Source: Nannocystis bainbridge (GTDB taxonomy: Bacteria > Myxococcota_A > Polyangia > Nannocystales > Nannocystaceae). From it: 64,000 bases of DNA. The notes under the pieces were generated by a model. The model made no database searches. It had not been told where the DNA came from and saw only the letters and a list, made by a program, of their open reading frames with translations. The stretch is from NCBI RefSeq assembly GCF_028368995.1, contig NZ_JAQNDL010000002.1, positions 864,001 to 928,000 of the forward strand, given 5' to 3'. The position numbers and the translations under genes were made by a program. Numbering within the stretch: position 1 is the first letter of the stretch; each line of letters starts with the position of its first letter. Positions 12,264 to 12,626 of this stretch are shown in pieces.

Positions 12264-12626
12264 CCTCGCACGAGGTGAGCCCGACGCGGCGAAGCCTCCA
12301 GAACTTCGGGGAGGCCGAGGGTCCCTGGGGCTTCGAGCCCGGTAGCGAGTGTGGTCCCCCGAAGTTCGATCTCGATTTTTCTTGGATGATTGTGGGGCTG
12401 CGGACTCAAATCGGCCCCACCGCTGCCGGGTTCGTAAGCTGTCGTACCGCCGTTTCTTCCTTCGCAGGGCGAGACTTCTCGGAGGACTTCGAGAGGCCGT
12501 GGGTCCCTGGGGCAGCGAGCCCGCGCGTGAGACGAGGCCCCGAAGTTCGAGTTTGACCTCAAGAGCCCGGACAACTGCATGAGCGTCAGCCAGCTCGAAT
12601 CCTACAAGGGTGGGCGGTAGGTCAAG
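12264..12626 (+). ncRNA. Bridge RNA region: two target-binding loops (12301-12367, 12484-12548) and one donor-binding loop (12553-12625); RNA ends approximate
   Basis: Donor guides ACAACTGC (12571) and TACAAG (12603) match IS ends; target guides TGGGTCCCT (12500) and GCGTGAG (12525) match flanks; closing stems visible. Confidence 0.85.

Follow-up and report, generated by a model that had tools for sequence, protein, structure and literature searches.

The window analysed here, a 64,000-nucleotide (nt) stretch of Nannocystis bainbridge DNA, contains an insertion sequence (IS) of the IS110 family whose left end encodes a putative bridge RNA with two target-binding loops (TBLs) and one donor-binding loop; in the same genome, one of the target loops best fits the insertion site of the copy in the window and the other that of a further copy of the element. 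The main features of the locus are listed below, where R1 is a covariance model of the target-loop module.

12256..13658, + strand: IS110-family insertion sequence, 1,403 bp, the last bases being the core CT (13657-13658)
12301..12367, + strand: TBL1, the upstream target-binding-loop module (R1, 79.8 bits)
12368..12483, + strand: spacer between the target loops, 116 nt, of low conservation and variable length
12484..12548, + strand: TBL2, the target-binding-loop module adjoining the donor loop (R1, 77.9 bits)
12551..12627, + strand: donor-binding loop (fold of 12549-12630; guides match the element's own ends)
12669..13640, + strand: recombinase gene encoding 323 aa; DEDD RuvC-like and Tnp domains (Pfam and PDB matches)
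12247..12255, + strand: left target half TGGGTCC plus core CT, forming the left junction (flank comparison of three copies; empty site in genome G035)
13659..13663, + strand: right target half CGCGC (sequence, flank comparison, pairing scores, and the G035 empty site)

The element belongs to the IS110 group and not to IS1111. These groups are distinguished by the position of the long noncoding region, which in IS110 lies upstream of the transposase gene (PMC11187229), and the noncoding DNA found here comprises 413 nt (12256-12668) upstream of the recombinase gene, in place of the 415 bp given by the earlier sequence-only reading of this DNA, and 18 nt downstream; the domains, catalytic residues, and junctions also agree with this assignment. 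The recombinase gene is the single open reading frame (ORF) of the IS. Its product matches the Pfam families PF01548 (7.5e-23) and PF02371 (8.1e-18), both above the cut-offs, and in phmmer comparisons with PDB proteins it aligns over residues 3-313 with ISCro4 (7.6e-33) and IS621 (1.6e-32). Residues D10, E66, D108, D111, and S246 align with D11, E60, D102, D105, and S241 of IS621, mutation of which is reported to abolish recombination (PMC11208158). Judging from these alignments, the recombinase is an intact, full-length homolog of IS621 and ISCro4.

The genome of the window (G000; 11.05 Mb in 5 contigs) carries three copies of the element, one of them identical to the window copy and another with 4 differences. 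All three have CT at both junctions and flanks that differ from copy to copy, and no target duplication beyond the common CT was found at these junctions; among the 25 of 31 inverted pairs listed, none was an end-to-end inverted repeat of the IS. In the genome of another member of the genus (G035), the site orthologous to that of the window copy is uninterrupted and reads GTGTGGGTCC-CA-CGCGCGC (locus L201), with CA where the window has the CT core. The ends of the IS are fixed by this empty site, because its left and right flanks are contiguous.

The two diverged copies of a stem-loop that the sequence-only reading had described, including the strings it quoted, are present in the left end at the places where it had put them. 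A repeat search of the left end revealed a 31-nt repeat pair (12311-12341 and 12493-12523, 90% identical) and a 13-nt exact pair (12357-12369 and 12538-12550), which local alignment stretches to ~85 nt (approximately IS positions 30-114 versus 208-296). When folded alone, each of the two modules forms a basal stem, an internal loop, a GGGC/GCCC hairpin, a second internal loop, and a further stem. TBL1 consists of the left target guide LTG1 (12318-12326, AGGGTCCCT), the hairpin (12327-12340), and the right target guide RTG1 (12343-12349, TAGCGAG), and it specifies the target AGGGTCC-CT-CGCTA. In TBL2, the corresponding guides are LTG2 (12500-12508, TGGGTCCCT) and RTG2 (12525-12531, GCGTGAG), which specify TGGGTCC-CT-C(G/A)CGC. 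These targets follow from the pairing rule described for IS621, in which the two guides pair with opposite strands, the left one with the bottom strand in the left half-site and the right one with the top strand in the right half-site (PMC11208160). The left guides of the two loops are nearly alike (A/T-GGGTCC-CT), whereas the right specificities differ, being CGCTA for TBL1 and CGCGC for TBL2.

As is typical of bridge RNAs, one internal loop pairs with both halves of the insertion site and a second one pairs with the joined ends of the element (a donor composed of right end, CT, and left end). In the donor loop, the left donor guide (LDG; 12571-12579, ACAACTGCA) matches the right end ACAACTG-CT at 8 of 9 positions and the right donor guide (RDG; 12602-12608, CTACAAG) pairs with CT-TGTAT at 6 of 7. 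This loop is kept in the sister genome G038, a member of the same genus, where one change is a wobble (UGCAAG), and its motif GAGCCCGAACA(A/G)(C/T)TGC is common to distant homologs. The sequence-only reading, which assigned the region to an IS110 bridge RNA that has a pair of target loops and a single donor loop, is supported. All tested features of the IS110 group and of bridge RNAs were found here with the exception of the single target loop: the canonical IS621 arrangement has exactly one target loop and one donor loop, and two TBL modules are present in all 8 copies of this lineage.

One line of evidence for two guides is the fit of the loops to occupied insertion sites. Flanks were scored over 14 positions (7 nt, CT, and 5 nt) against the loops of the same element, which left seven scorable sites, three in G000 and four in G038. 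The scores are given below as Watson-Crick pairs/wobbles/mismatches.

L001 (window copy), TGGGTCC-CT-CGCGC: TBL1 11/0/3; TBL2 13/1/0 (the wobble being U-G)
L002 (G000), CGGGCCC-CT-CGCTC: TBL1 11/1/2; TBL2 10/3/1
L003 (G000), CGGGTCC-CT-CGCTA: TBL1 13/0/1; TBL2 10/2/2
L033 (G038): TBL1 12/0/2; TBL2 12/1/1
L034 (G038), CGGGTCC-CT-CGCGA: TBL1 13/0/1; TBL2 11/0/3
L035 (G038), CGGGTCC-CT-CGCGA: TBL1 13/0/1; TBL2 11/0/3
L037 (G038): TBL1 12/1/1; TBL2 11/0/3

By the number of Watson-Crick pairs, TBL1 fits better at five of the seven sites and TBL2 at one, with one tie. The match of TBL2 to the target of the window copy, noted in the sequence-only reading, holds over all 14 positions without a mismatch, and the flank of L003, with 13 Watson-Crick pairs to TBL1 against 10 to TBL2, is of the kind that this reading asked about. 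Genome-wide counts in G000 required an intact CT core and used strict mismatches (with G at the RT2 position for TBL2), as a wobble-tolerant scan was too permissive (65 and 475 sites). For the TBL1 specification, no sites remain in this genome at 0-1 mismatch, 16 remain at 2, and 225 at 3 (241 up to 3 mismatches); for TBL2, no perfect sites remain, and there are 9 sites at 1 mismatch, 127 at 2, and 1,560 at 3 (1,696 in total). L001 occupies the sole perfect TBL2 match in the genome and L003 the sole 1-mismatch match to TBL1. Because no equal site remains, the best site in 11 Mb before the insertions was L003 for TBL1 and L001 for TBL2, and each of them is a 3-mismatch site for the other loop. 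A model with only one working loop must therefore put a 3-mismatch insertion exactly on the best site of the other loop. For IS621, single target mismatches are reported to be disfavored, and double mismatches more so (PMC11208160). These matches in G000, a genome in which all three insertions were made by one and the same element, are the strongest point in favor of the use of both loops.

The target-loop module is a well-defined structural unit. In all, 12 modules were aligned, drawn from the window and from three G038 copies or variants (both loops in each case) and from five relatives (their single loops). Its consensus fold has 16 pairs, of which 10 show changes on both sides; 90.6% of the cells pair versus 73.7% in column shuffles (none of 500 reached 90.6%) and 22-55% when the partners were slid. 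The secondary structure of the target-loop module is therefore supported by co-variation, to which this module was subjected, whereas the donor loop was assessed by its fold and guide matches. The R1 model, built from this alignment, was run on 89 loci and gave two full-length matches (75-81 bits) in each of the 9 loci of this lineage, which represent 8 distinct copies, 3 in G000 and 5 in G038 (L033 and L040 being one place). Exactly one match was found in 45 other loci and none in 34, and L080 had a second, weaker match that comes from a 100%-identical partial repeat; a stray 22.7-bit match is located in the L001 flank. Among 80 metagenome loci, 60 have a match and none has two on one strand. 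On one metagenome contig (L129), R1 matches on opposite strands (1394-1465 on the minus strand and 1833-1903 on the plus strand) lie ~370 nt apart and may represent two elements placed head to head. Across the genus, R1 found 6 matches in G000, 10 in G038, one each in G039, G041, and G042, and none in six genomes; in the phylum-wide scan, no match was found outside G000 in the 150 other genomes sampled. Both modules are thus present in 8 of 8 lineage copies from two genomes of one genus, relatives at 38-58% protein identity carry one, and the metagenome and genome scans yielded no homologs with protein identity between 58% and 90%. A chance origin of the two modules was rejected, given the two R1 matches per lineage copy, the one in relatives, and the shuffle test.

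Region-by-region comparison of the window copy with three full G038 copies revealed 94-97% identity for TBL1, 94-95% for the donor loop, and 90.8% for TBL2; the recombinase gene is about 91% identical, with changes mostly at third codon positions, and the spacer has 71-73% identity plus 23-24 gap columns. Conservation above that of the flanking spacer is significant both for TBL1 (Fisher tests, p = 3e-5 and 2e-4) and for TBL2 (p = 0.0076). The length of the spacer varies among the lineage copies from about 45 to 116 nt. One G038 copy (L036, G038:C6) is truncated at approximately IS position 608 and has lost a further stretch of the spacer (approximately IS positions 134-219), keeping both target loops. 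Protein coding was rejected as the cause of the conservation of the left end, whose ORFs are long frames of the kind usual in high-GC DNA and whose spacer has indels of 23-24 nt; the possibility that a degenerate left-end copy lies in the spacer was rejected as well, with 130 of 500 shuffles aligning equally well. Another G038 copy (L037, G038:C7) has an internal deletion of IS positions 382-1027 that spares its two ends, the two target loops, and the donor loop, and could be a nonautonomous derivative.

In the nearest outgroups (L041, L120, and L121, with 56-58% protein identity), the left end, a single target loop, a linker of 4-5 nt, and the donor loop fit into ~205 nt. The element resembles the outgroups both in the 5' flank of TBL1 (CTCCAGA) and in the 3' flank of TBL2 (linker and donor stem), so the extra loop, one module together with a spacer, was inserted later; by this comparison, the left end grew through a duplication of ~85 nt and the addition of a spacer, and the two-loop state is derived. 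Partial tandem duplication of noncoding units next to IS110 transposases is reported to be common (n = 468 at at least 95% identity; 10.64898/2026.08.14.744561) and, by analogy, would be the likely source of the second loop. Since the two modules of the window are only about 80-90% alike, the duplication in Nannocystis is old. Its products are complete, diverged, and conserved, unlike the fresh repeats seen in the Gemmatimonadales homologs L045 (2239-2358), L046, and L080 (2213-2386). The latter carry 100%-identical tandem repeats of 60 and 87 nt that span the left end and a portion of the target loop. The junction of the L045 repeat falls directly after the DNA encoding the left guide and CT, as would result from recombination of the element into the DNA that encodes its own guide.

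The sister genome provides a separate view of TBL1. L003 and four of the five G038 copies reside in a REP-like (repetitive extragenic palindrome-like) intergenic repeat of the form GACGGCGGGCACGGAGCGGCGG..GGGTCC-CT-CGCnAC..., also given as GACGGCGGGCACGGAGCGGCGG..GGGTCC-CT-CGCnACGGCGGGGCCCTCCCAGG. Seven members of this type were found in G000 (C1:1743905, C1:1956697, C2:2976472(-), C4:156640, C4:597924(-), C4:721209(-), and the L003 flank), while G038 has at least 16 that are unoccupied; judging from these flanks, the repeat is the natural landing site of the IS. In the G038 copies of subfamily B, the right guide of TBL1 differs by one base (TCGCGAG) and specifies CGCGA, having changed together with the repeat around the insertion; L034 and L035 are copies at such CGCGA sites. 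The 14-mer specified by this TBL1 has 19 sites in G038 at up to 1 mismatch, whereas the reversed-pattern control has none; 14 of the 19 read CGGGTCCCTCGCGA, 2 read TGGGTCCCTCGCGA, and 3 have an altered CT core. Because the subfamily-B specification fits the repeat at 16 G038 sites, against 0 in the control, the right guide of TBL1 tracks the repeat variant of the host, which is hard to explain for an inert sequence.

In the mechanism that we propose, either target loop would load a recombinase dimer and pair with the target, and the single donor loop would load the second dimer at the place where the ends meet in the excised circle. The element would in effect carry two alternative right-half specificities, with TBL1 aimed at the REP-like intergenic repeat of the host and TBL2 at a second sequence class. 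We infer that the left end is transcribed and bound by the recombinase and that either loop is used, in cis or in trans. A promoter formed at the circle junction, an arrangement known for IS110 elements (PMC11208160, PMC11187229), would probably produce a transcript that covers TBL1 and TBL2 with the spacer between them, followed by the donor loop and the recombinase gene. The two candidate promoter hexamers would lie 18 nt apart in the circular form:

12258..12263, + strand: TATGTT, -10-like hexamer (picked by eye)
13637..13642, + strand: TTGACG, presumed -35-like hexamer in the right end, overlapping the stop codon (picked by eye)

For IS621, separate RNAs for the TBL and for the donor-binding loop (DBL) are reported to have supported recombination in vitro, and a synaptic complex probably takes its two loops from different RNA molecules (PMC11208158). 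In CazIS110-1, a TBL-only RNA is described as exceeding the full-length bridge RNA ~10-fold in abundance in vivo and as supporting left (LT-RD) junction transfer to a new target (10.1101/2025.10.25.684509). Since the separate IS621 loops and the TBL-only RNA of CazIS110-1 work, nothing known demands that a target loop lie beside the donor loop.

On the guide matches and their distribution, both loops would be working guides that widen the choice of targets, with TBL1 aimed at the REP-like repeat, and we assign this reading a probability of roughly 0.6. Several observations weigh against it, and a number of these lend themselves to a model in which only one loop guides in any given element and the other is a spare, its guides freed from selection and drifting toward a new specificity or decay. 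The working loop in G038 would then be TBL1, and that in the genome of the window either TBL1 or TBL2, the second match being luck. We regard this possibility as rather unlikely. TBL2 fits none of the four scorable G038 copies (L033, L034, L035, and L037) better than TBL1, which is better at three of them and ties at L033. The subfamily-B TBL2 has an altered left guide (AGGTTCCCT), and its specification AGGTTCC-CT-CGCGC has 10 sites in G038 at up to 1 mismatch versus 4 in the control, i.e., background without enrichment; in subfamily A, 2 of the 8 pairs of the TBL2 basal stem are broken. Together with the lower conservation of TBL2 than of TBL1, this makes TBL2, not TBL1, look like the drifting copy in G038, and since TBL2 there fits no occupied site better, use of both loops is directly supported in G000 only. 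The sample comprises just 8 copies from 2 related genomes (L034 and L035 being located in copies of one repeat), and two of the seven sites do not discriminate between the loops, L002 having 3 strict mismatches to either loop and L033 12 Watson-Crick pairs to each. If insertion into REP sites is taken as the null, the chance that L003 would be the best TBL1 match among 7 REP-type sites is about 1/7; half-match recombination and a structural target determinant have been reported, and by analogy either could direct a copy to a REP site with little or no contribution from the right guide. Folded as a whole, the left end is no more stable than shuffles (z = -1.02, with 16 of 100 folding as well), its minimum-energy fold loses the modeled TBL1 stem, and the modules folded alone give z = -2.57 for TBL1 (2 of 200), -1.11 for TBL2 (31 of 200), and -1.66 for the donor loop (14 of 200), although thermodynamic folds are weak evidence here. 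The Rfam scan of 11900-14000 (E values up to 1) gave no match to a bridge-RNA family and yielded four weak, irrelevant matches (miRNA families and Cyano-2) that fall in the flanking iterons or within the recombinase gene. A consensus scan found no promoters in the linear left end and called no terminator-like site there, spacer included, and the junction promoter was recognized by eye. What a single working loop does not readily account for is the placement of near-identical G000 copies on the single best site of each loop in the presence of 241 (TBL1) and 1,696 (TBL2) competitors; moreover, TBL2 is still conserved above the spacer and occupies the canonical place beside the donor loop.

Two other explanations concern TBL1 specifically. 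This loop could be bound by the recombinase and yet be regulatory, either as a decoy that titrates the protein or as a 5' structure that controls read-through to TBL2, the donor loop, and the mRNA. Its strong conservation, its position at the 5' end of the presumed transcript, and the conserved T-rich stretch after it (GATCTCGATTTTTCTT in the window, GATCTTGATTTTCT or GATCTTGAATTTT in G038) would suit such a role, but a decoy or attenuator needs no match between loop and insertion sites, and the right guide tracks the flanks in two genomes; in addition, the T-run begins 9 nt past the stem and was not called terminator-like. A regulatory role is accordingly improbable. It is more improbable still that TBL1 is a functionless by-product of the partial tandem duplications reported as common at IS110 loci, of which the recent 100%-identical repeats in L045, L046, and L080 are examples: the age of the duplication implied by the divergence of the modules, the retention of both in every copy over two genomes while the spacer decays, and the guide-to-flank matches all speak against it. 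The reading in which both loops guide is thus the one adopted below. The proposal of the sequence-only reading that an extra loop widens the target range or keeps a spare guide is supported in its main claim, the L001 and L003 flanks agreeing with a wider range. Most of the checks that it suggested agree with it: folding of the region returned the module for each TBL alone and no signal for the left end as a whole, and comparison with homologous elements upheld both the conservation of TBL1 and the doubling of the module. Its likening of the RNA to a "primitive guide array" goes beyond the data, which consist of two units in one small lineage.

The IS adjoins four 22-nt iterons (GCAGATCCCGGACAACGATCCG; 12099-12210), located just to its left. 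Downstream are an ORF with a ParB helix-turn-helix (HTH) domain and an ORF for an rve integrase (14517-16547 and 17278-19020), and together with the iterons these look like a plasmid- or phage-type replication/partition module. The orthologous iteron/ParB region is present in G035 without the IS. A segment of the donor loop, AGAGCCCGGACAAC (12562-12575), is identical at 13 of 14 positions to the core of the flanking iterons (12102-12204); it belongs mostly to a stem and not to a guide, and the likeness is probably due to chance. Upstream of the iterons are two adjacent ORFs with PP2C-type phosphatase domains (6829-7782 and 8407-9828).

The chances are about even that this element represents a natural multi-guide bridge RNA system, with one recombinase, one donor loop, and two independently evolving target loops. 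One loop would be tuned to the REP-like repeat, a safe, many-copy landing site, and the other would be free to explore; the window copy, next to the iteron/ParB-like module of plasmid or phage type, would have been guided by the exploring loop, and duplication of the loop would be a way for an RNA-guided transposon to gain a new specificity with the old one kept. In most respects, the element resembles IS621 and ISCro4 as they have been described (PMC11208160, PMC11208158): it shares with them the recombinase fold family, the five catalytic residues, an upstream noncoding RNA region, the CT core, a left guide in the top-strand sense and a right guide complementary to the top strand, a donor loop matching its own ends, and a REP-like natural target. 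However, the bridge RNA in those systems is ~177 nt long, with one target loop and one donor loop, whereas the left end here has 413 nt and two complete target loops 116 nt apart. The TBL-only RNA of CazIS110-1 (10.1101/2025.10.25.684509) similarly represents a target loop acting apart from the donor loop, but it is described as a truncated form of a single bridge RNA with the same guides, while the second loop in Nannocystis is separately encoded and has different right-guide bases. The expanded IS110 loci (10.64898/2026.08.14.744561) share the partial duplication of the noncoding region beside the transposase; the units in that work, with their at least 95% identity, are treated as locus growth and not as extra guides, whereas the duplicates described here are diverged, complete modules conserved across genomes. 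The likeness to CRISPR or TIGR guide arrays, in which a single effector is served by several adjacent guides of the same structural type, is no more than an analogy: the element has two units, with guides inside structured loops, no regular repeat-spacer pattern, and no acquisition machinery. No tandem or second target loop in a natural bridge RNA was found in the literature searched, although catalogs of varied bridge RNA structures in the supplements of PMC11208160, 10.1101/2025.05.14.653916, and 10.64898/2026.10.21.760802 could hold one.

Bridge RNAs have been described as bispecific, with one target loop and one donor loop. The reach of the present finding is limited by the small size of the lineage, which comprises two genomes, but if both loops are used, the system tolerates, and selection can favor, more than one target guide per donor. 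The left end of ~410 nt offers a natural test of whether target loops act in cis, in trans, or as separate RNAs. If the proposed reading is true, engineering would also gain a precedent from nature for multiplexing target loops within one transcript, and duplication of the loop would be an evolutionary route by which these transposons are retargeted.

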